Below are positions 16,062 to 64,000 of a stretch of DNA of 64,000 nucleotides, piece by piece; position 1 is the stretch's first letter; each line of letters begins with the position of its first letter. Location: positions 121,210-185,209 of the forward strand of contig JBBTXG010000005.1 of assembly GCA_038062375.1 (NCBI GenBank), given 5' to 3'. The stretch comes from Patescibacteria group bacterium (GTDB lineage Bacteria > Patescibacteriota > Minisyncoccia > Minisyncoccales > UBA10102). The notes beneath the pieces are model-generated. The model saw only the letters and a list, made by a program, of their open reading frames with translations. It was not told the origin of the DNA and ran no database searches. The position numbers were made by a program, and so were the translations under genes.

Positions 16062-17336
16062 ATGTTGAGCGCTATTCCTATTTTTATAGTTCTTGGAGTC
16101 CTCCTTTTCTTTTCCTTCGCAAGCGTTCTTGGAAACCTCAATCTTTCCTCCTTGAGCCATCTTAACGTTGGAAGGCTTGGGTTGGCAAGCATCGAGCAAC
16201 CTGACGAAATCCAACAAGCACGAGATTCAAAAAAAGAAACTCGGCAAGAAAAAGAGGAAGAGGTCGAAAACAGCTCGTCTCCCCAACGCAAAGCAAAGGA
16301 AAACTCCTCTTCAAATCAATCTTCGAGAAACAAAACAAGCCCGATTTCTCACCAAACCATCCCCCCACCAGTGCTTGATACCATCATCACGAAAGGGCCG
16401 AGTAACCATACCATATTTTTCGATACCACTACCGTATCATTTGAATTTGTAGGTACAATCACTCCCTCTCATACTCTTGGTGAAATCTCTTTTGAGACAA
16501 AGATAGATGGACTCCAAGAAAAATGGCAATCTACCTCAACACCAACGAGAACAATTATTCTTCCTCCGGGACCCAAGGAGTACACATTTCTCGTGCGCGC
16601 CAAGTGGAAAGAGATTGTTGATCTTACCCCTGCCTCACGAACTTTCCGCATCAACGTTTCTCCTTACTCGGGAAAGGTAAAAATTTCTCGCATCAACCCT
16701 CCAAGAAACTCTCAATCATCTCAAATCAATCTCACTACCAAACTCCTGAAAAACGAAGCGGTGAATATTACCGGATGGAGGTTTGAAGGGAGGACTGATC
16801 AGTATAGTATCCCAAAAGGGGTAAGACAATTCGCAAAGTTTGATACCTCGCAGATCCTTCGCGAAGATATTATTCTGGAGCATGGAGACACCGTTGTACT
16901 TACAAGTTCCTTCAACCCCTTCGCAAACAATTTCAATTTCAAGCCAAATCAATGCTTTGGATACCTCGCAAAAGGAAAACGCGTTTCTTCTTCTATTCCT
17001 ACGTCTTGCCCCTTTGCGAAACCCTCAAAAGAAGAACTTTCTCTTTTCTCTCCCTCGTGTCAAGATTTTATTTCAAAGAACATACGAGGTTGCGAAATTC
17101 CAGACTATTCACAGAACCTTCCCATTCTCCGTGACTTCGATTGTGTGACTTACCTAAAAAACATCGAAAACCAACTCACCTACGAGGCTTGTTTCCAGCG
17201 ATATTCGAGGGATGAGAATTTTTTCAAAAATGAATGGCATATCTTTACGGACGGAGAAGAGTTCCTTAGATTAGGACATGATTACATCGTCCTTCGCGAT
17301 CAAAACGGCTTATTTGTAGATACATATATCTACTAA
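16062..17336 (+). CDS. membrane-anchored hypothetical protein with Ser/Glu/Lys-rich linker
   Basis: 424 aa with an N-terminal TM segment and a low-complexity region, followed by a Cys-containing globular part. Confidence 0.6.
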   Translation: MLSAIPIFIVLGVLLFFSFASVLGNLNLSSLSHLNVGRLGLASIEQPDEIQQARDSKKETRQEKEEEVENSSSPQRKAKENSSSNQSSRNKTSPISHQTIPPPVLDTIITKGPSNHTIFFDTTTVSFEFVGTITPSHTLGEISFETKIDGLQEKWQSTSTPTRTIILPPGPKEYTFLVRAKWKEIVDLTPASRTFRINVSPYSGKVKISRINPPRNSQSSQINLTTKLLKNEAVNITGWRFEGRTDQYSIPKGVRQFAKFDTSQILREDIILEHGDTVVLTSSFNPFANNFNFKPNQCFGYLAKGKRVSSSIPTSCPFAKPSKEELSLFSPSCQDFISKNIRGCEIPDYSQNLPILRDFDCVTYLKNIENQLTYEACFQRYSRDENFFKNEWHIFTDGEEFLRLGHDYIVLRDQNGLFVDTYIY

Positions 17337-17498
17337 AGTGACACCACAACTTTGAGTGCTTGAGGCTCGTAAATAAAAAACTTGCCTTGATTCTCTTTTC
17401 TTTTCCATGCTACCTTAAAGGTAGCTTCTTTCGAGAATTCTCTATAAGAGGAGGCTTGATGGATACTTTCAGAAAACAGTTATAGAAAGGAGGTATAA

Positions 17499-18908
17499 AT
17501 GAGGTGGGATGAAAGACTTTCGCCGGATGACATTCCTGATGGGTCTGGCACTGTTGTTGTGGGCCTCCTCGAGGAGGAAGAAGATCCGATTATACCGTAC
17601 CTCGAGGAAGATAACCAGCAATTGGATCAGCAGGATACAGGTGATCCGGTCAGGATATATCTACGAGAGATCGCGCGAGTGCCCCTTCTCACTGCCAAGC
17701 ATGAAAAAACTCTGGCTCGGAAAATGGAGGGTGGAAGACACCTGGAAAATCTGGAGAAACGGTTGCAGGAGGCTGAAGGCCGTCTCCCCAAAGCCTGGGA
17801 GATGTGCGTCGCTCTCCTGCGACGCCTGGGCCAGGCCGCTCCTCTGGTCGGTTCTTTGGGAGAAAATCTGGACCTGCCCCACAACCTGACCCTTTCGCAG
17901 ATCACCGACCATCCCAAGCTCCGAGCTGCTATAGATGGTAAGCTTGACCCGGACCTGATGGCCCTTGTCGCTAAAGATTTGGATATATCACTGGACGAAG
18001 TAAAACAAAGCGTCATCCAATTATCTCTGCATAGCTTTGTCCTCCCCACTGACGTGATAGATGCGCTGGAGGACTGCGCTCTGGGGCAACTGATGAAAAT
18101 GCTAGATACTCCTGATTGCTGCTCCAGACTTCAGTCCATGGACAAGCTGTTCCAGGCCTACTTTGATCGTATCAGGGAGGAGGGCCTGCGCGCCCAGAGA
18201 CACCTGACAGAAGCCAACTTGCGGCTGGTGGTAAGCGTAGCTAAGAAATACATTGGCAGGGGTATGGATCTGCTGGACCTGATCCAAGAGGGAAATATCG
18301 GCCTCATCACGGCGGTGGAGAAGTTCGAGTATCGCAAGGGCTTCAAATTCAGCACCTACGCCACCTGGTGGATACGGCAATGTGTCACCCGCGCTATCGC
18401 CGACCAGGCTCGAACCATACGCATCCCAGTGCACATGGTGGAGACCACAAACACGCTGATGCGCCAGCACCGTCGCTTGATCCAAGTGTATGGCAGGGAG
18501 CCTACCCCGGAAGAGATCGGCAGGGCTATGGAGATACCGCCTCATAAGGTAGAAGAGATTCTGAAGATCTCTCAGAAGCCGGTCTCTCTGGAAACCCCTG
18601 TAGGCGTGGGAGGAGATACCCACCTGGGTGACTTTATCGAGGACGAGAGCACTCCTGCCACCGCGGACGCCGCCTTTTTCCAGTTGCTTAAAGAGCAGAT
18701 ACAGGAAGTGCTGGATACCCTCACCGAAAGGGAGAGTCGGGTACTTCAGCTCCGCTTTGGGCTGGAGGATGGCCGCAGCCGCACCCTGCAAGAGGTGGGA
18801 AGGGAGTTCGGGGTGACGCGAGAGCGGATACGGCAGATTGAGGCCCAGGCGCTGAGAAAACTGCGCCACCCAAACCGCTCGGATAAGCTGCGGGACTTCC
18901 TTGAGTAA
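17499..18908 (+). CDS. rpoD: RNA polymerase sigma-70 factor, group 1-like, GC-rich
   Basis: 469 aa. Region 1.2 (VRIYLREI), region 2 ([35 protein letters not shown]), region 3 and region 4.2 ([20 protein letters not shown]) are present. AAAGGAGG RBS. Confidence 0.93.
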
Positions 18909-18922
18909 ACTGGGGACTAAAA

Positions 18923-18954
18923 AGAGTGATCCTTCAAGATCACTCTCTTTTTTT
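18923..18954 (+). terminator. intrinsic terminator after rpoD
   Basis: AGAGTGATC-cttcaa-GATCACTCT followed by CTTTTTTT. Confidence 0.75.
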
Positions 18955-18977
18955 GCCCTAGTACTGCAGTCAAATTC

Positions 18978-20099
18978 TTATCCCTTCTCGATTCTTTTTC
19001 GAATATCTCCAAACAAATCCGCAAAAAAGAAGAGGTTGTGATAGGTGGCGAGGTAGTAGCCGAGGAGTTCTCGTTCCTTAAAGACATGATGGAGAAAAGA
19101 GAGAGAAAAGTTTTGGCAGGTGTAGCACTTGCAATCTCTTTGAATGGGATTTTTATATCGCCGATACCGAGATTTCATCACGTCTATGCGAGTAAAGTTT
19201 CTGCCGGCTTTTTGAAATACAACGCCCTTGCGCGCCAACCGTGTGGGCTCCACGCAATCGAAGGTATCGATCCCGTAGGGTACGGCATCCAGAATATCCT
19301 CTACCCTCCCTACTCCCAAGAGATGTACTGGTTTGTTCTCGGCGAGATAGGGAGCTACCCATCGCACTTGTTCTCTTAACTCTTTTTTACTCTCCCCTAC
19401 CGAAACTCCCCCAATTGCAACCCCGTCGACTTCCTGGCGCGCAATAAATTTCGCAGATTCAATCCGCAGATCCTTGAACATACCTCCTTGAATGATTCCA
19501 TACAGATATTGGCCGTTTGGACGCTTGGTTTTGATGCATCGTAAAAGCCATCGGTGCGTCCGCTCGGTTGCTTCTTTTGTATATTCGCGGTTCGCTCCGT
19601 AATAGATGCACTCATCAAATGCCATGATAATATCTGCCCCGATCTTCTCTTGATTGCGAATCGAAACCTCGGGTGTAAATATCATCTCTTTTCCGTCTCT
19701 GGGCGAACGAAACCATACGCCTTCTTCGGTGATTTTCTTGACTGGAATTTCATCTTCCTCTCGATTCCTCACTGCTCTTTCCGGCTTTTTTCCTGCAAGC
19801 GAAAACACCTGAAATCCCGCAGAATCGCTCATGAGGGAGATATCCAAGCTCGCATACTTGTGTATTCCTCCGAGCGCCTTGATCACATCAACTCCTGGAT
19901 GTACCGTCAAATGAAATGTATTTACAAACGCAGCTCGCACTCCTATTTCTTTCAGATCTTTTGGTGGAATTGTCTTGAGCGTCCCTTTTGTTGCCACTGG
20001 CACAAATGCCGGAGTCTCAATCATTCCGTGGGGCGTCTTCATAACGCCGATCCTTGCTCTCGATTTTTTGCTTTTCTTTAAAACCCTAAAAAACTCCAT
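18978..20099 (-). CDS. tgt: tRNA-guanine transglycosylase
   Basis: 373 aa with ETPAFVPVATKG and the Zn site CKCYTCQNFSLSFLHH. Confidence 0.92.
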   Translation of the reverse strand: MEFFRVLKKSKKSRARIGVMKTPHGMIETPAFVPVATKGTLKTIPPKDLKEIGVRAAFVNTFHLTVHPGVDVIKALGGIHKYASLDISLMSDSAGFQVFSLAGKKPERAVRNREEDEIPVKKITEEGVWFRSPRDGKEMIFTPEVSIRNQEKIGADIIMAFDECIYYGANREYTKEATERTHRWLLRCIKTKRPNGQYLYGIIQGGMFKDLRIESAKFIARQEVDGVAIGGVSVGESKKELREQVRWVAPYLAENKPVHLLGVGRVEDILDAVPYGIDTFDCVEPTRLARKGVVFQKAGRNFTRIDVMKSRYRRYKNPIQRDCKCYTCQNFSLSFLHHVFKERELLGYYLATYHNLFFFADLFGDIRKRIEKG

Positions 20100-20135: not shown

Positions 20136-20855
20136 TTATTCCAAAAGTAGATGTTCAATGCTTCTATATTTTTTATCTTCTAAAATTCTCCTTACAAAGC
20201 CCTGATATTCAGACGGATTTCGAAAGAAGCTACCGCATATCCCCTTATCAATAATGCGTGATTCTCTCTTCCCGAGATACTCTTGGTGAGTACTCCAAGG
20301 ATATTCTGCTGCAAATTCCATAATTTTTCCCAAATCTCTTATTCCTTCTTCTTTGAGTTTGGGCTCCAATAGCTGGCCGGGGTTGAGAACGTTGATGTAT
20401 ACCAAAAGATATTGAAGATGAATATCTTTATCGACCTGGACAGCCTGAAATCGTCCCTGAAAAAGTCCGCCAACCCGGTCATATTTTTTGTTGAAATATT
20501 TTACATACCCAGTACCCAGTTTATGCATAAACTTTGTAATACCATTATCAATCAATTCTTCGAGCACTAAATGATAGTGATTAGGCATTAGGCAATCCGC
20601 CATGATACGCACGAGGGGTGATTGATTTTTTTTCTTTTTCTGAAAATACTCTCTTAAAACACGAAAATTCACCTCCTTGCGCGTTTTCTCCAATTGCCAT
20701 AAAAGATTTGCGGTCGCCTGTTTGTCGTTGAACAAACACAACCCTTGAAGGAAACGCCATCGATCATTCTCGTCTCCAAAGATGCTGCGCTTCTCTACGC
20801 CTCTATTATAAATATGGTAAATTTGATTCTTCGCAAACTGAACTTTTCTCTTCAT
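20136..20855 (-). CDS. IS200/Y1-family transposase-like protein (RAYT-like)
   Basis: 239 aa with HUH motif (PNHYHLVLEE), GGLFQGRF, and a Tyr helix (QYLLVYINVLNP) comparable to YIYINPV of E. coli RAYT. Confidence 0.75.
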   Translation of the reverse strand: MKRKVQFAKNQIYHIYNRGVEKRSIFGDENDRWRFLQGLCLFNDKQATANLLWQLEKTRKEVNFRVLREYFQKKKKNQSPLVRIMADCLMPNHYHLVLEELIDNGITKFMHKLGTGYVKYFNKKYDRVGGLFQGRFQAVQVDKDIHLQYLLVYINVLNPGQLLEPKLKEEGIRDLGKIMEFAAEYPWSTHQEYLGKRESRIIDKGICGSFFRNPSEYQGFVRRILEDKKYRSIEHLLLE

Positions 20856-56319: not shown

Positions 56320-56441
56320 AATGCAAAAGTGGGGACTACCTACTCTCGCCTTGCGACTACCATCGGCCTTGCCGTATTTCACTTCCGTGTTCGGAATGGG
56401 AACGGGTGGGACAGCGGCAGTATAATCCCCACTTTTACATT
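56320..56441 (-). rRNA. rrf: 5S rRNA
   Basis: The minus strand contains CCCACCCGTTCCCATTCCGAACACGGAAGTGAAATACGGCAAGGCCGATGGTAGT. The termini form a 16-bp helix I (AATGTAAAAGTGGGGA / TCCCCACTTTTGCATT). Confidence 0.9.
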
Positions 56442-57749: not shown

Positions 57750-58592
57750 CTTGTCGACATTTTTCTCTTCTTACGAAGAGGATCGGACTATATCTTCATC
57801 CTCCAAAGCTCACGTGAGCGACGGAGGAGTCGGCGTATTAGTTCTCTCTTAAGAGAGAACTCTGATTCTTTCAAAATCAAGTCTCTACGGGGTTATAACC
57901 CAATTTGTATCTCATTGAAGGAATAATATTCTGCTGTAATATTTCCCTCAAGGCAGGAACTGCCGAAGAAAGAAACCTGATACGATAGTATTCCTTGTCT
58001 CTGTTGAGGCGAGCTTGAAGTCCTAACGTATAGAGTTTTTCTACTAACCTTTCCTGATCTTGTAAGCTGAATTGTTGTGTGTTGAGATAGAAATTCGAAT
58101 TTCCACACTTACTTCCGTCATCCATAAACCATACACTCAAGACCACAGAATCCAAGGTAAGTTCTTCTGGGACAATTTTCTTACCGGCTCGGTAGAAAAC
58201 TCCAAGTAACTTACTCAATTCTGGATGCTGTCGCGTGAAAAAACGATACGCTATTCTATTTCCATTCCCGAATCTTCTTTTTGGTTCTGAAATGCAGAGG
58301 TTCTGCAGAATTCTGAATTTCCAATCAACATATTCTTTTGCTTTCCAGGAGTGATTACACTCAAGAAATGCATCCTTTCTTCCAGGCATGATTCGTAAAT
58401 ATCCATCTCCCAACAACGATCCAACAATAAGAGATCTTTGCAATTGGGTCAAACTTCCCACGGTATTGTCCATATGTACAGGTACATTATAGCACATGGA
58501 GTTCACCGTTATAAGCCGATTTTTTGTTTTTCTTCGAGTGCTTATCTCGAAGAACAGGTATGGCATTACTGCCATAGCACCCCGATATGTTA
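57750..58592 (-). mobile_element. group I intron in the peptidyl-transferase loop (about E. coli position 2500)
   Basis: The exons join as GTTCGGCACCT|CGATGTCGGCTC. The 5' exon ends in T and the intron ends in G. Confidence 0.8.
57877..58473 (-). CDS. double-motif LAGLIDADG homing endonuclease
   Basis: From MDNTVGS, with LIVGSLLGDGYL and VWFMDDGS motifs. The 3' end overlaps the conserved intron core (ACCCCGTAGAGACTT, shared with intron 1). Confidence 0.85.
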   Translation of the reverse strand: MDNTVGSLTQLQRSLIVGSLLGDGYLRIMPGRKDAFLECNHSWKAKEYVDWKFRILQNLCISEPKRRFGNGNRIAYRFFTRQHPELSKLLGVFYRAGKKIVPEELTLDSVVLSVWFMDDGSKCGNSNFYLNTQQFSLQDQERLVEKLYTLGLQARLNRDKEYYRIRFLSSAVPALREILQQNIIPSMRYKLGYNPVET

Positions 58593-61340
58593 AGGTGCCG
58601 AACAGGGCCGTAGATATGGACTCGCGGGCCCTACCAGCCTGTTATCCCCGGGGTAACTTTTGGTTGATGATCTTTGCGTTTTCTAAAAAAACACATCGGT
58701 TCACTAAGTTCTGGTTTCCCAACTGCTCGACATATCCGTCTCGCAGTAAAGCCGGCTTGTGCCTTTACACGACCGCTCCGATTTCCATCCGGAGCTAGCC
58801 GACCTTTAAACGCCTCCGTTACTCTTTAGGAGGCTGACGCCCCATCAAAACTGCCCACCACCTACTGTCTCCCTCGATAGGGATTAGTTTTATTATTTCG
58901 ACAGATGGGTATTTCACTGACGGCTCCTCTACCGCCGAGACGGCAGACTCAAAGCCTCCCCACTATGCTACGCAGTCAAAACAATAGAACAATAAGAAGC
59001 TACAGTAAAGCTCCCGGGGTCTTTCCGTCTAGCCGCAGGCTAACCGGCATCTTCACCGGTATTGCATTTTCACCGGGCTGCTCCTGGAGACAGTTCTCAA
59101 GTCGTTACGCCTTTCATGCGGGCCTGAACTTACCAGGCAAGGGGTTACGCTACTTTAACACGGTTATAGTTACCGCGGACGTTCACTGGGGCTTCGGGCA
59201 CTCACCCCGCTGCACAGCAGCGGAAATCCCAATTTCCAACGGTCATTGGAGTTTGGTCATTCCCGATGCTGTACATCGGAGCGGCACCGTTAACACTCCA
59301 GCACTGGTCAGGCGTCGGCCCCTATACATCCTCTTTTGGAGTTGAGCAGGGACCTGTGTTTTTGTTAAACAGTCGCCAGAGAAACGTTTGCTGCGACCGC
59401 CAACATTCTTCTCCGAAGAGAAGTTTTGGCGGTAGTCCTTATTGCGAACTTACGGACACTTTTTTGCCTAGTTCCTTCAGGAGGTTTCACCCGTTCACCT
59501 TAGTGTACTTACACTAAACCACCTGTGTCGGTTTACGGTACGAATTCCGCTCTCTCATTTCCGGAAAACTTTTCTAGGAAAGTTGCTCACTCAAATTTTC
59601 TTAGCCGAAGCTAAAAATTTTCTTGCCCCTTGGAAAATCCTTAGAGCAAAAACTCAAATCCATTTACAAGCTTGAGCTACTAACTTTCGTCCTTTTCCTA
59701 CAGAAAAAGCGGAAGGGCCGGAATATGAACCGGCTGTCCATCAGAAGGTACCATTCGGTACATCCCTAAGGATCGCCTAACCCTTGGATGATCGACATTG
59801 CCAAGGAAACCTTGGGTTTTCGGTGTACAGGGATCTCACCTGTATTGTGGTTACTCATGCCAACATTCTCACTCCTCATCGCTCCACCCTTGCCTTACGG
59901 AAGAGCTTCACTGCAATGAAGACGCTCCCCTACCGCAGAGTACCGTCTGGTACCCTGCCCTTATCTTCGGTATCAAGCTTGAGCCCCGTTAAATCTTCGG
60001 TGCAGAATTCCTTAGCTAGTAAGCTGTTACGCACTTTTTAAAGGATAGCTGCTTCTGAGCGAACCTCCTAGCTATCACAGGAACTCCACTTCCTTCCTAT
60101 GCACTTAGCTTGATTTAGGGACCTTAGATGAAGATCATGGGCTGTTTCCCTTTTGAGCATGGAGCTTAGCCCCCATGTTCTGACTCCCTTCTCTCTTTTT
60201 CCCCGCGGCATTCGTAGTTTGGTAAGAAAACCTGGATTGCTCCACGATATTCTTTCCAGAGCTCTACCTCCACAGGAAAGAGAAAGGGCTAGCCCTAAAG
60301 CTATTTCGGGGAGAACCAGCTATCACCAAGCTCGATTAGCTTTTCACTTCTTACCACAGCTCATCCCAAGGCATTGAATCGACCTACGGGTTCGGGCCTC
60401 CGACCGCCTTTCGGCGGTCTTCACCCTGGCCATGGCAAGCTCGCTTGGCTTCGGGTTTTACACGTACTGCGTTCGCCTCATGGGCGGATCGCGCTTTTCG
60501 CACTCGGTTTCCCTTTGCCTTCGTCCCAGAAGGACTTAGACTCGCAATACATATAAACTCGTTGGCTCGTTCTGCAAAAAGCACCTCATCATCCACCACA
60601 ACTTCTTTCGAAGATATTGGCGGACTCTGAGTCTTTGTAGGCGAAATGGTTTCAGGTTCTATTTCACCGCCCTCACCGGGCTACTTTTCACCGTTCCCTC
60701 ACGGTACTGGTTCACTATCGGTGATATCAAGTATTTAGCCTTGGCCGATTAGTTCGGCCTGCTTCCCACGAGACTTCCATTTCTCGAGGTACTTAAGATA
60801 TAGTAACGAGAAGTATCAAAACCCGTTTCACGTACAGGGCTATTACCTTCTATGGCCTACCTTTCCAGGTATGTTCTGTTACGGAAGTTTTGAATTTTTC
60901 CACTCCCCACCCTTTCGGATGTGCTACTACCTTGCAACCCCCTGCACCGTATTATAGTACAGAGTTTGGGCTTCTCCCTTTTCGCTCGCCGCTACTAAGG
61001 GAATAATGTTATTTTCTTTTCCTCCGCTTACTGGGATGTTTCACTTCAGCGGGTTCGCGTCCCACTTCACTCCTTACGGAGCTCTGCGGGACGACTGCGC
61101 TTTCGCGCAATCGAGTTTCCTCATTCGGACATCCTCGGATCAAAGGTTGCTCACCACCTCCCCGAGGCTTATCGCAGGCACGCCACGTCCTTCGTCGCCT
61201 TGATATCCCAAGGCATCCACCATCCGCCTATAATAATGCAATATGTCGGCTAGCAATTCTTAATCACTTCTTTTAATCACTTCCAAAATTTGTTGCGCAA
61301 ATTTTGGAGACCCCATTTTTCAGTTGTCAAAGAACTCACG

Positions 61341-61369
61341 AGAAAAGAAAAACCGCTTTTCGCAAGCGG
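61341..61369 (-). terminator. terminator-like hairpin in the rRNA leader / downstream of 61501-62193
   Basis: Minus strand reads CCGCTT-gcgaa-AAGCGG followed by TTTTTCTTTTCT. Confidence 0.5.
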
Positions 61370-61450
61370 CTCTTCTTCAAGCCAAAAAAGAGGTCGTTCT
61401 TTAGCCGCTTTTCATCTGTTTCGTTGTTCTTCTATTTCTCATGTGATTTT

Positions 61451-61479
61451 ATTTTAGCCGAAACAAAATATCCTGTCAA
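61451..61479 (-). promoter_or_regulatory. near-consensus sigma-70 promoter upstream of 23S
   Basis: Minus strand reads TTGACA-17 nt-TAAAAT. Confidence 0.5.
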
Positions 61480-61500
61480 TAGCGGCTATGCCAAGAATGT

Positions 61501-62193
61501 TCATTCCTTCATTTTACTCCTCAAGTCGCGCAAGATTTCTGCTGCAATCTCTCTGCCTCCCAGGCCAAACGCGAGCCCTCCTCCCAACGCAATCATCGCA
61601 ACAATCCCCACAAAGATCGTTTGAGGAAGGGCCCCTGCCAAATGGAGTTGATCCAAGACAACCACGATCGCCAAAATCCAAATCGACCATCGAATGATCG
61701 CTCCTATGATGCGTCCGTACCCTGCTTGAGTGCCTTCGATCGTAACGCGTAAAATCTTCTCGATAATATCAGCAAGAATAACGGCAACGATAAAAATGAA
61801 AGCAGAAACCACGATATTGGGCAAAAAAGTAAGAACGCGATCATTGAGAAGCCGAGTGAATTCCTTAAACCCTAAGATCTCCAAAGACGCCGAAAGGAAT
61901 ACGAAAACAAACAGCCATTTCGCGATTGATCCAATAAAACCGGCGGGATCTATTTTCAGATTTGCTTTCTCCAATGCTTGCTTCCAGTTCCCTCTCTCGA
62001 AAATTTGATTAAATTTTACTCTTCTCAAGATATCCATCACCAACTTTCCTATCCCTGCCGAAACAATCCATCCAATCACAAATACGATCACGGCTCCAAT
62101 CAATTGAGGAAGGAATCTCAAGAGAAATCCTTCCCACAAACCTCCAAGAGCGCTCGCTGTAATATCGTACCAATTTGATATTCCCGGATTCAT
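61501..62193 (-). CDS. membrane protein with repeated conserved-TM-helix (MscS-associated type) segments
   Basis: 230 aa with repeated LPxLIGAVIVFVIGWIV-like helices. Confidence 0.5.
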   Translation of the reverse strand: MNPGISNWYDITASALGGLWEGFLLRFLPQLIGAVIVFVIGWIVSAGIGKLVMDILRRVKFNQIFERGNWKQALEKANLKIDPAGFIGSIAKWLFVFVFLSASLEILGFKEFTRLLNDRVLTFLPNIVVSAFIFIVAVILADIIEKILRVTIEGTQAGYGRIIGAIIRWSIWILAIVVVLDQLHLAGALPQTIFVGIVAMIALGGGLAFGLGGREIAAEILRDLRSKMKE

Positions 62194-62269
62194 ACATTAT
62201 TTATTTCTATTCTCTCTCCTATTATACCTCTCCACAAAAACGACCTTTCTTATTGGAAAGGCTTCCTCT

Positions 62270-62593
62270 TCATCTTTTCTGGTGTTTCCTCTCCTCACGA
62301 ATTATCCTCGCCTTTCCCAAAATCGCATTCCTTGGAATCCATCCAAAACTTCTGCTATCTACACTGCTTTCTTTATCCAAGCCTTCTACCCAGTAAAGAG
62401 AACTCTGCTCTTTGCATTTCTCTTTCAGAATATATTTCAGTATCAGCCGATCTTCTTGAGAGTGGCGAATCACCACCACATCTCCGGGCCGAGGCCGAAA
62501 GAGAAGGTAGGACAATTTGTCGAGTAGAACAAAATCACCTTCTTTACACAAAGGTTCCATACTCTGTCCTCTTACAATGAAATATGCCAGCAT
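62270..62593 (-). CDS. sodX: S26-family Ni-SOD maturation protease
   Basis: 107 aa with GQSMEP (Ser nucleophile) and DSRSFG. Adjacent to sodN. Confidence 0.75.
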   Translation of the reverse strand: MLAYFIVRGQSMEPLCKEGDFVLLDKLSYLLFRPRPGDVVVIRHSQEDRLILKYILKEKCKEQSSLYWVEGLDKESSVDSRSFGWIPRNAILGKARIIREERKHQKR

Positions 62594-62647
62594 GACAGAC
62601 GACTAATGACCAGTACCATTATAGAGCTCATTGTCATAGGTTATAGG

Positions 62648-63112
62648 TTATTTCTTCTTCGCTTCTTCTGCCTGATTGAATAATTCCGCAATTCCCTCTA
62701 CCGCCCTCAAGAGTTCCTGCGCAGCTTCGAGATTTACCTCCTGCTTTACCTTCGAGCACAGTTTTGCAGCCTTCCAAAACATCTCATGCAAATTCGGAAA
62801 CATTTGCAAGTGCTCTGGCTTAAAGTAGTCGGTCCACAGAATCAAAAGCTCTGTCTTGCACCTTTGCGCATGCTCTTCTTTTACTTGCACGTACCTAACC
62901 ATAGCATTTATCTTTCCTTTTGCCTCTGCGATATTTGGTATTGGAAAACTTGGGGGTTCCAACTCTTGGATTTTTTCTACCATGCGAATTACTGTTCTTG
63001 CCGCGGTCAATGCTGGTTCTGGCGTATAAATCCCGCAGGGAATATCACAATGCGCAAAAACCTCTCTTGCGGGAAATACCTTATTGAGGAAACGAAAAAG
63101 GAAGCGCCACAT
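62648..63112 (-). CDS. sodN: nickel superoxide dismutase precursor
   Basis: Leader followed by the Ni-hook HCDIPCGIY, plus LWTDYFKP (compare Streptomyces LWSDYFKP). Confidence 0.88.
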   Translation of the reverse strand: MWRFLFRFLNKVFPAREVFAHCDIPCGIYTPEPALTAARTVIRMVEKIQELEPPSFPIPNIAEAKGKINAMVRYVQVKEEHAQRCKTELLILWTDYFKPEHLQMFPNLHEMFWKAAKLCSKVKQEVNLEAAQELLRAVEGIAELFNQAEEAKKK

Positions 63113-63272
63113 ATTACTTTAGTGTACCCTATCGAAAATACTCGTCAATAGAAAATGAACAACTGCTCACTTCTCGCCAGAACCGCAGGGTATTCGGTCA
63201 AGGAGAATAATAAACACCCGCTCTCGCCAAACTGGTTCGAGCGGGCTTATAGTCCAAAGATTTTACTCCTCG

Positions 63273-64000
63273 CTACTCTATGCGCTCACCTGTGAGGCGG
63301 AAATAAGCCTCTCGGTAGCGCTGGGAGGTCTTTTCCACCACATCTTTAGGTAGCTCCGGAGCCGGAGGCTCATGGTTCCAACCCTGGGAGTCGAGCCAAT
63401 CCCTGACATACTGTTTATCAAAGTTGGGCAACGAGCGTCCTGGCTCGTACCCGGCGGCATCCCAGAAGCGGCTGGAGTCAGGGGTGAGCAGCTCGTCTAT
63501 AAGGATCAGCTTCCCATTCAGAAGGCCAAACTCCATCTTGGTGTCGGCCAGTATGATGCCCCGCCGCTGGGCATAATCTTGGGCAAAGCTGTAGATAGCC
63601 AGGCTTTTCTCCTCTAGCTGGCGGGCCAACTCTACACCCACCATGTCCTCTACTTGCTGATAGCTCATATTCTGGTCGTGGCCCACCTCGGCCTTGGTCG
63701 TAGGGGTGAACAGTGGCTCTGGTAAGGCCTCTCCCTCTTTAAGACCCTGGGGCAACCTCTGGCCCCAGACAGTGCCATTCCGTCTATACTCGGCCCATGC
63801 CGAGCCTGCCAGGTAACCCCGTACGATACATTCGATATCGATCCTTTCGGCGCGCCTGACAATCATAGCCCGACTTGCTATCTCTGAAGGAAGGTTGGCG
63901 AGAACTTCGTTATCTCGATAGATAATCTGAACATGAGGAGCATCAGCAAAATCTGCAAAGTGAGTCTCCGAAACACTCCATATTTTCTTAAACCAGAAAC
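63273..64000 (-). CDS. purC: SAICAR synthetase (5' end beyond the window)
   Basis: IECIVRGYLAGS, LFTPTTKA and ILADTKMEFG. The frame stays open upstream of the track ATG to the window edge (...FWFKKIWSVSETHF...). Confidence 0.88.
   Translation of the reverse strand, partial: FWFKKIWSVSETHFADFADAPHVQIIYRDNEVLANLPSEIASRAMIVRRAERIDIECIVRGYLAGSAWAEYRRNGTVWGQRLPQGLKEGEALPEPLFTPTTKAEVGHDQNMSYQQVEDMVGVELARQLEEKSLAIYSFAQDYAQRRGIILADTKMEFGLLNGKLILIDELLTPDSSRFWDAAGYEPGRSLPNFDKQYVRDWLDSQGWNHEPPAPELPKDVVEKTSQRYREAYFRLTGERIE

Follow-up and report, generated by a model that had tools for sequence, protein, structure and literature searches.

A probable Dehalococcoidia-derived second primary-type sigma factor in a Patescibacteria group bacterium

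We analysed a 64,000-nucleotide stretch of DNA (the window, G000:C5:121210-185209) from a Patescibacteria group bacterium, in which an intact sigma-70 gene lies on the plus strand between two native genes, orf424 and the gene for tRNA-guanine transglycosylase (TGT, tgt). G000 is a metagenome-assembled genome (MAG) from the candidate phyla radiation (CPR), with an assembly of 670,814 bp in 16 contigs, 45.2% GC, 86.6% completeness and 0.8% contamination. We found that the gene product, P0001, is a second, primary-type sigma factor beside a native RpoD whose gene is linked to dnaG. Furthermore, our data indicate that P0001 is very probably a horizontally acquired housekeeping-type sigma factor of Dehalococcoidia (Chloroflexota).

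The sigma gene and its insertion site

The features of the locus are as follows (positions of the window).

17499..18908, plus strand: primary-type sigma-70 gene encoding P0001 (469 aa), very probably an acquired, 5'-truncated xenolog of Dehalococcoidia rpoD (domains, homology, tree)
17643..17738, plus strand: region 1.2, aa 49-80 (Pfam PF00140, E=1.4e-11)
17739..18182, plus strand: non-conserved insert, about aa 81-228, all-helical and common to Dehalococcoidia RpoD (alignment, AlphaFold)
18207..18416, plus strand: region 2, aa 237-306, core binding and -10 recognition (Pfam PF04542)
18441..18656, plus strand: region 3, aa 315-386, with the sigma finger and its altered tip (Pfam PF04539, alignment)
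18708..18869, plus strand: region 4, aa 404-457, -35 recognition helix-turn-helix (Pfam PF04545)
16062..17336, plus strand: orf424, native upstream neighbour, bordering the insertion site on the left (GC about 43%)
17337..17498, plus strand: AT-rich leader of 162 nt (GC 35-37%)
18923..18954, strand unassigned: terminator, a 9-bp hairpin AGAGTGATC-loop-GATCACTCT followed by a T-run (sequence)
18978..20099, minus strand: native TGT gene, bordering the insertion site on the right (Pfam PF01702)

The reading frame of the sigma gene is open from its ATG start over 1410 nt, and its product matches the Pfam models of Sigma70 regions 1.2, 2, 3 and 4, all above their cut-offs. The NCBIfam model RpoD_Cterm TIGR02393 is passed as well (368.2 bits, cut-off 354), and the full-length models score below theirs (PRK09210, 476 vs 572; PRK05658, 468 vs 555). 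A Pfam search of P0001 gave no match to region 1.1 (PF03979). The N-terminus is instead a 48-aa acidic stretch that is predicted to be disordered (predicted local distance difference test score, pLDDT, below 45). Between regions 1.2 and 2 lie approximately 150 aa that match no Pfam model, which AlphaFold predicts as an all-helical domain (pLDDT 95-97 over aa ~80-230), while the remainder of the protein is modelled poorly. A structure search with this model returned housekeeping sigma structures only, at low template-modelling scores, the domain arrangement not being modelled, and told us no more than the sequence does.

We found that the gene has a GC content of 55.5% and a GC content at third codon positions (GC3) of 64.0%, approximately 3.3 and 3.5 standard deviations, respectively, over the genome means of 45.0 +/- 3.2% and 44.8 +/- 5.5%, and that it ranks 7th by GC. 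The reference for this comparison is a crude set of 613 non-overlapping open reading frames (ORFs) of at least 100 aa from the 670-kb genome. Counted over 200 nt at a time, GC is 35-37% at 17200-17499, 50-62% within the sigma gene and 41% at 18900-19099, and the steps coincide with the start codon and the stop codon of the gene. The original prediction, made from the letters of the window, had described a complete rpoD-like gene with regions 1.2 to 4 and a long insert, GC-rich from start to stop, with a strong ribosome-binding site and a clean terminator, and all of this is borne out. Its hand count of 58% GC holds locally and is too high for the gene as a whole.

The gene order at the site is conserved in relatives. 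We found TGT orthologues (57-74% identity) in 17 family genomes, in the order YchF-(DUF192)-TGT-(orf424)-F420-ligase-like, and none of them has an adjoining sigma gene. In these relatives TGT and orf424 stand tail to tail with a gap of approximately 12 nt, or the next gene (F420-ligase-like) comes straight after TGT, while in G000 the stop codons of orf424 and tgt are separated by 1,641 bp (17337-18977). Nucleotide homology to donor-type genes (78.7% over 1266 nt) begins within the sigma ORF and stops at its stop codon (18907). At the other end, P0001 starts at a conserved Trp that corresponds approximately to residue 55-60 of the donor proteins, which indicates that about the first 55 donor codons have been lost.

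The truncated frame is preceded by a Shine-Dalgarno sequence, AAAGGAGG, at 17486-17493, 5 nt ahead of the ATG, and by an in-frame TAA directly before the ATG. The leader has no second copy in the G000 genome and no homology to donor DNA. A hairpin lies within it at 17409-17425; a regulatory leader structure was considered and rejected, the fold of 17380-17530 not being significant (z=-1.28). The leader also holds an upstream ORF of 8 codons (MDTFRKQL, 17446-17485) with its own Shine-Dalgarno sequence, AAGAGGAGG, which stops 1 nt ahead of that of the sigma gene. On the far side, the hairpin at 18923-18954 may serve as terminator for the convergent TGT gene too. The sequences flanking the sigma gene contain no repeats and have no copies elsewhere in G000, and a RAYT-like Y1 gene lies 1.2 kb off, at 20136-20855. 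A Pfam search of orf424 gave no match.

Native RpoD and the affinity of P0001 with Dehalococcoidia

A search of the whole G000 assembly with Sigma70_r2 returned three loci, namely the P0001 gene, a gene for a 168-aa protein resembling extracytoplasmic function sigma factors on contig C2, and a 412-aa rpoD at C4:505-1743(-). The last lies directly downstream of dnaG and has the composition of the genome backbone (GC 44.5%, GC3 42.9%), while the P0001 gene lies between orf424 and tgt and not in the dnaG-rpoD pair. The native RpoD contains region 1.1, has its nearest relatives (72-83% identity) in Candidatus Wildermuthbacteria, Paceibacterota or Parcubacteria, and falls into a clade with the canonical RpoDs of its family relatives (support 100/100); these nearest relatives also mark the organism as a CPR bacterium. 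A canonical rpoD-type match was also found in 36 of the 40 relatives searched, including all 5 that carry a second sigma gene. P0001 resembles group 2 sigma factors in that it coexists with a group 1 sigma factor and keeps the residues for recognition of housekeeping-type -10 and -35 elements.

We found that the best 120 matches to P0001 among 5.8 billion proteins have 66-80% identity and a length of about 517-535 aa, and that many of them lie on contigs of 0.2-3.5 Mb, far above any CPR genome. Among contigs of one genome per species in GTDB, every one of the best matches carries the label Dehalococcoidia; the donor taxonomy rests on these named GTDB loci together with the tree. The nearest homologue with full coverage, P0004 (75% identity), is encoded on a contig of 57.5% GC immediately after a 672-aa dnaG and is therefore the housekeeping sigma factor of its organism. 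Overall, P0001 shares 73-80% amino-acid identity with Dehalococcoidia RpoD, and the alignment with donor-type proteins is colinear through the whole of the long insert. In phylogenies, P0001 nests in a clade of 13 Dehalococcoidia-type RpoDs (98 by the Shimodaira-Hasegawa-like approximate likelihood ratio test in one tree, 99/97 in another), far from the CPR RpoD clade (100/100).

The distribution of the insert agrees with this placement. Used alone as a query, the insert matched all of 5 Dehalococcoidia genomes that served as control, 4 of 401 genomes of the order to which the window belongs (G000 counted), all of one family (f1), and none of 400 further genomes drawn from across the phylum Patescibacteria, so that besides G000 there are 3 matches among roughly 800 sampled Patescibacteria genomes. 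Taken together, homology, tree and insert distribution point to a transfer from Dehalococcoidia into CPR. The two checks proposed in the original prediction, a search for another rpoD in the genome and a phylogeny of the protein against CPR and Chloroflexi sigma-70 proteins, thus both gave an answer: its suggestion that the only primary sigma factor of the cell had been replaced is not supported in view of the native gene, and its alternative, an acquired second sigma factor in a CPR genome with a Chloroflexi-like donor, is upheld.

A further Dehalococcoidia-type sigma gene, that of P0076 (L134:6001-7479), lies on a 358-kb non-CPR contig and adjoins a PP2C/SpoIIE phosphatase gene, not dnaG, and the Dehalococcoidia genome G410 has two loci of the insert type. 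These observations suggest that the donor lineage may itself hold sigma paralogues. P0076, too, has many private substitutions.

Relatives, rates and other GC-rich genes

Five other genomes of the family (G007, G017, G023, G004 and G020), each of another genus, encode an insert-bearing second sigma factor in addition to a canonical rpoD. These second sigma genes are located as follows.

L097:7424-8833: second sigma gene of a family relative
L098:4736-6133: second sigma gene of a family relative
L100:8937-10298: second sigma gene of a family relative
L096:9161-10690: second sigma gene of a family relative
L099:4095-5414: second sigma gene of a family relative

Their products are highly divergent, with 37-56% identity to P0001, and the genes are elevated in GC over their flanks (49-55% vs 43-45%; in G004, 55 vs 53%), with a GC3 of 49-57% vs 64% for the P0001 gene. 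The copies of G007 and G023 have downstream neighbours in common, and that of G020 shares them in part, so we regard these three as orthologous. Those of G004, G017 and G000 lie at other loci, and no synteny was found between the P0001 locus and the second-sigma loci of the relatives. Moreover, the site of the P0001 gene is empty in G007, G023 and G020, and G000 has neither a sigma gene nor a remnant of one at the locus shared by G007 and G023. In the corresponding region of G000, between the orthologues that flank the second sigma gene of G004, there is an ORF of 57% GC (G000:C5:20715-21257), which by its look we take to be a PlsX fragment.

In a tree with all six second sigma factors, the placement of the long branches, at 1.4-8 substitutions per site, is unstable. 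Once the three longest branches are left out, P0001 and the pair of G007 and G017 fall into different starred Dehalococcoidia-type clades, and a single clade of P0001, G007 and G017 is rejected by the approximately unbiased (AU) test (p=0.006). Because of these separate clades and this test, we read the data as at least two captures within the family, that of P0001 being the most recent. The original prediction had named, as an outcome that would speak against it, clustering of the protein with rpoD of related CPR genomes of the same composition. Such GC-elevated second sigma genes do exist in five family members; P0001 stands apart from those of G007 and G017, the two best-behaved among them, and all six copies lie within or next to the Dehalococcoidia-type radiation and not among CPR RpoDs, so that the clustering was seen in weak form only.

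Our data further suggest that the transfer was fairly recent relative to amelioration, since codon composition is still donor-like: the P0004 gene has a GC/GC3 of 56.6/65.9 vs 55.5/64.0 for the P0001 gene, with little shift toward the 45% GC of the host. Nevertheless the protein has changed rapidly (2-4x the rate of the donor-lineage orthologues). At the 224 columns with at least 97% conservation across 116 relatives, P0001 has 19 private substitutions, the median of the others being 0. Tajima relative-rate tests, in which P0001 was set against ten in-clade proteins and three outgroups were used, give it 49-62 unique changes vs 13-31 (p<0.05 in 30 of 30). Among the private changes are R271T in region 2.2, A295C and I296V beside the -10 recognition residues, and I317T with K319T; the tip of the sigma finger reads GVGGDTH where the donor type has GEEEDSH (EEED to VGGD). 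The region 2 motif is kept, as are the core-binding motifs that we checked, and the region 4 motif is identical to that of B. subtilis SigA (PDB 7ckq_F) and of the native RpoD. Those residues that we checked for contact with the -10, extended -10 and -35 elements agree among all three proteins; these positions were assigned after the sigma structures of E. coli, Thermus and Bacillus.

It had also been proposed that an acquired sigma factor might drive the other GC-rich genes, and a comparison of their promoters with those of backbone genes had been suggested. A special promoter for these genes was rejected, as sigma-70 consensus scores did not differ between 14 GC-rich ORFs and 254 others (Mann-Whitney p=0.23), and one donor for all of them was likewise rejected because their histories are mixed. 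With the same checked promoter residues in P0001 and the native RpoD, no distinct promoters and these mixed histories, the proposal is not supported. The DEAD-box helicase (G000:C5:35377-36606, 56% GC) has 58-66% identity to its counterparts in 16 CPR relatives vs 38-41% to those of Dehalococcoidia and on sequence comparison is family-native, so high GC alone is no proof of foreign origin in G000. PyrF (G000:C5:107846-108583 (-), 60% GC) has 81-85% identity in G015 and G020 vs 57% in Dehalococcoidia, and its gene is patchy, being present in 5 of 35 other family genomes. PurC (window 63273-64000; G000:C5:184482-185405) shares 67-69% identity with G023 and G007, 60-66% with five Dehalococcoidia and only 42% with the PurC of other family members; judged by its sequence the origin of purC is ambiguous, and a sub-clade may have received the gene by an earlier transfer. 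None of the other genes tested thus points to a Dehalococcoidia donor, purC being ambiguous and pyrF and the helicase not doing so.

Two further features concern the GC profile and the end of the window. The GC bump at 59-61 kb is accounted for by the minus-strand 23S and 5S rRNA genes (58557-61243 and 56327-56433), which also explain why a spurious ORF of high GC appears at 58905-59345. At window 61264-64000 and beyond (G000:C5:182473-191786) lies a tandem duplication of 4,658 bp and 99.96% identity, which holds the GC-rich purC twice and may be real or an assembly artefact.

Interpretation and comparison with known sigma factors

We conclude that a piece of DNA with most of the housekeeping rpoD of a Dehalococcoidia bacterium, lacking approximately the first 55 codons and extending to the stop codon, entered the site where the 3' ends of orf424 and tgt converge. 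The recipient is a groundwater CPR bacterium resembling Candidatus Wildermuthbacteria, which has kept its own dnaG-linked rpoD, and the truncated frame is now headed by a new ATG and a strong Shine-Dalgarno sequence. The insertion would be lineage-specific, fairly recent and separate from the older second sigma genes of at least two sister genera. P0001 would bind the CPR core RNA polymerase in competition with the native RpoD and read the same -35/-10 promoters, which would make it a group-2-like alternative housekeeping sigma factor and not a factor with a separate regulon. It probably differs from the native protein in regulation or kinetics, given that it has no region 1.1, a shortened acidic N-terminus, the helical insert and a less acidic finger tip; the want of region 1.1 would bear on autoinhibition, and the changes in the sigma finger on initiation or escape. 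Its faster evolution would reflect relaxed or new constraints once it was no longer an essential sigma factor.

Several observations weigh against this explanation, and they are considered here with the explanations that they would favour. The sharp composition step at both ends of the gene is what an assembly or binning chimera would leave, that is, a Dehalococcoidia fragment misjoined to a CPR contig. A chimera is very unlikely, to the point of being barely credible, because five independent assemblies reproduce both junctions. The exact P0001 protein occurs on 9 contigs, and the 5 that were inspected, from different samples and assemblers (two ENA assemblies of filter fractions from Hainich well H51, two Logan assemblies of separate runs and one NCBI MAG), agree at 99.96-100% identity across as much as 21.4 kb and show no single-nucleotide polymorphism in the sigma gene or its junctions. 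Against it stand also the truncated 5' end, with its new start and Shine-Dalgarno sequence inside AT-rich DNA, and the synteny of the flanks with CPR relatives. No donor above 80% identity was found in the collections searched, which speaks against a chimera too. Alternatively, P0001, which is of group 1 type by sequence, might be the only primary sigma factor of the cell after a xenologous replacement, and here it counts that the native rpoD lies on a separate contig of the MAG, its linkage to the P0001 contig resting on binning and on the pattern in 36 of 40 relatives. We consider this highly improbable: the dnaG-rpoD pair on C4 is CPR-like with backbone GC, contamination of the MAG is low (0.8%), and the relatives with a second sigma factor all have the canonical gene as well.

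A different history, in which a Dehalococcoidia-type gene was acquired once in the ancestor of the family and P0001 is a slowly evolving orthologue that was relocated, would fit the fact that six genomes of one family carry the gene and none of about 780 other sampled Patescibacteria does. Placing all six CPR second sigma factors in one clade is compatible with the AU test (p=0.08), some derived residues are held in common (Y282F in P0001, G007 and G004; AIDG), P0001 pairs with the G023 copy in one tree (85/92), and the shared neighbour genes of G007, G023 and G020 indicate vertical descent among those three. Given the common residues and the AU result, a single old acquisition with relocation is possible; we nevertheless hold it to be improbable in view of the rejection of P0001 with G007 and G017 as one clade, their separate starred clades, the donor-like GC3 of the P0001 gene (64 vs 66%, where the other copies have 49-57%), its terminal branch of 0.4-0.5 vs 1.2-8 for the others, and the reciprocal empty sites. 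It is also rather unlikely that the gene is a neutral passenger that does not work with the CPR polymerase and is heading to loss. The truncated 5' end and the elevated rate would suit such a passenger, and the private substitutions at near-invariant sites, including R271T and those in the sigma-finger tip, could be early decay. Nor was a consensus sigma-70 promoter recognised upstream of the gene, so its transcription may depend on read-through from orf424 or on a weak promoter, either of which is possible. However, the 1410-nt frame is uninterrupted although the protein differs by at least 20% from every known relative, the gene has a strong Shine-Dalgarno sequence and a terminator, the promoter-contact residues that were checked are kept, the gene is identical across all assemblies of the population, and comparable second copies are intact in five other genera. 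We therefore favour the capture of a working second sigma factor.

On the broader meaning, recurrent capture might mark a lasting association of the CPR bacteria as episymbionts with Dehalococcoidia hosts, with the sigma factor in a host-related role; it might, for example, express scavenged host-type DNA or act on host-like transcription machinery, and so do more than double the function of RpoD. We give this only a slim chance, and no secretion signal was seen in P0001. The literature that we searched contains no report of a Dehalococcoidia-type sigma factor in CPR, and the search on rpoD transfer gave nothing on CPR. Transfer of core transcription genes is generally considered rare, and regulators are very few in CPR bacteria. 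Sigma factors gained by transfer and second sigma factors of primary-like type are already known; P0001 is a well-supported case of them and leaves the current understanding of sigma factors unchanged. What it adds is recurrent capture within one CPR family. A reduced genome with three sigma-type genes has added a whole housekeeping-type sigma factor from another phylum, and its relatives appear to have done similarly at least once more. The native and the borrowed protein, with the same promoter-contact residues and different N-termini, insert and finger, form a pair that raises the question of how a foreign sigma factor works with a divergent core polymerase. The P0001 gene might also help to trace the ecological partners of uncultured groundwater CPR bacteria.

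Compared with the RpoD/SigA of Dehalococcoidia, P0001 has the same helical insert of approximately 150 aa, the same regions 2-4 and a similar GC and GC3, and differs, as seen against P0004 in its dnaG-rpoD pair, in lacking approximately 55 N-terminal residues and the linkage to dnaG. With the native RpoD it shares regions 1.2-4, identical -10/-35 motifs and 55% identity over regions 2-4, whereas the native protein has region 1.1 and no long insert, and its gene has a GC content of 44.5% and is linked to dnaG. The second sigma factors of G007, G017, G023, G004 and G020 resemble P0001 in insert architecture, elevated GC and the presence of a canonical rpoD alongside; unlike P0001 they sit on far longer branches and their genes lie at different loci, and those of G007 and G017 belong to another Dehalococcoidia-type subclade. 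Group 2 sigma factors, which are primary-like and non-essential, include RpoS, Mycobacterium SigB, Streptomyces HrdA, HrdC and HrdD and cyanobacterial SigB-E, and are commonly viewed as paralogues that originated inside their own lineage. P0001 is like them in its coexistence with a group 1 factor, its regions 1.2-4 and its want of a recognisable region 1.1, and is unlike them in that it was, very probably, captured from the group 1 gene of another phylum.

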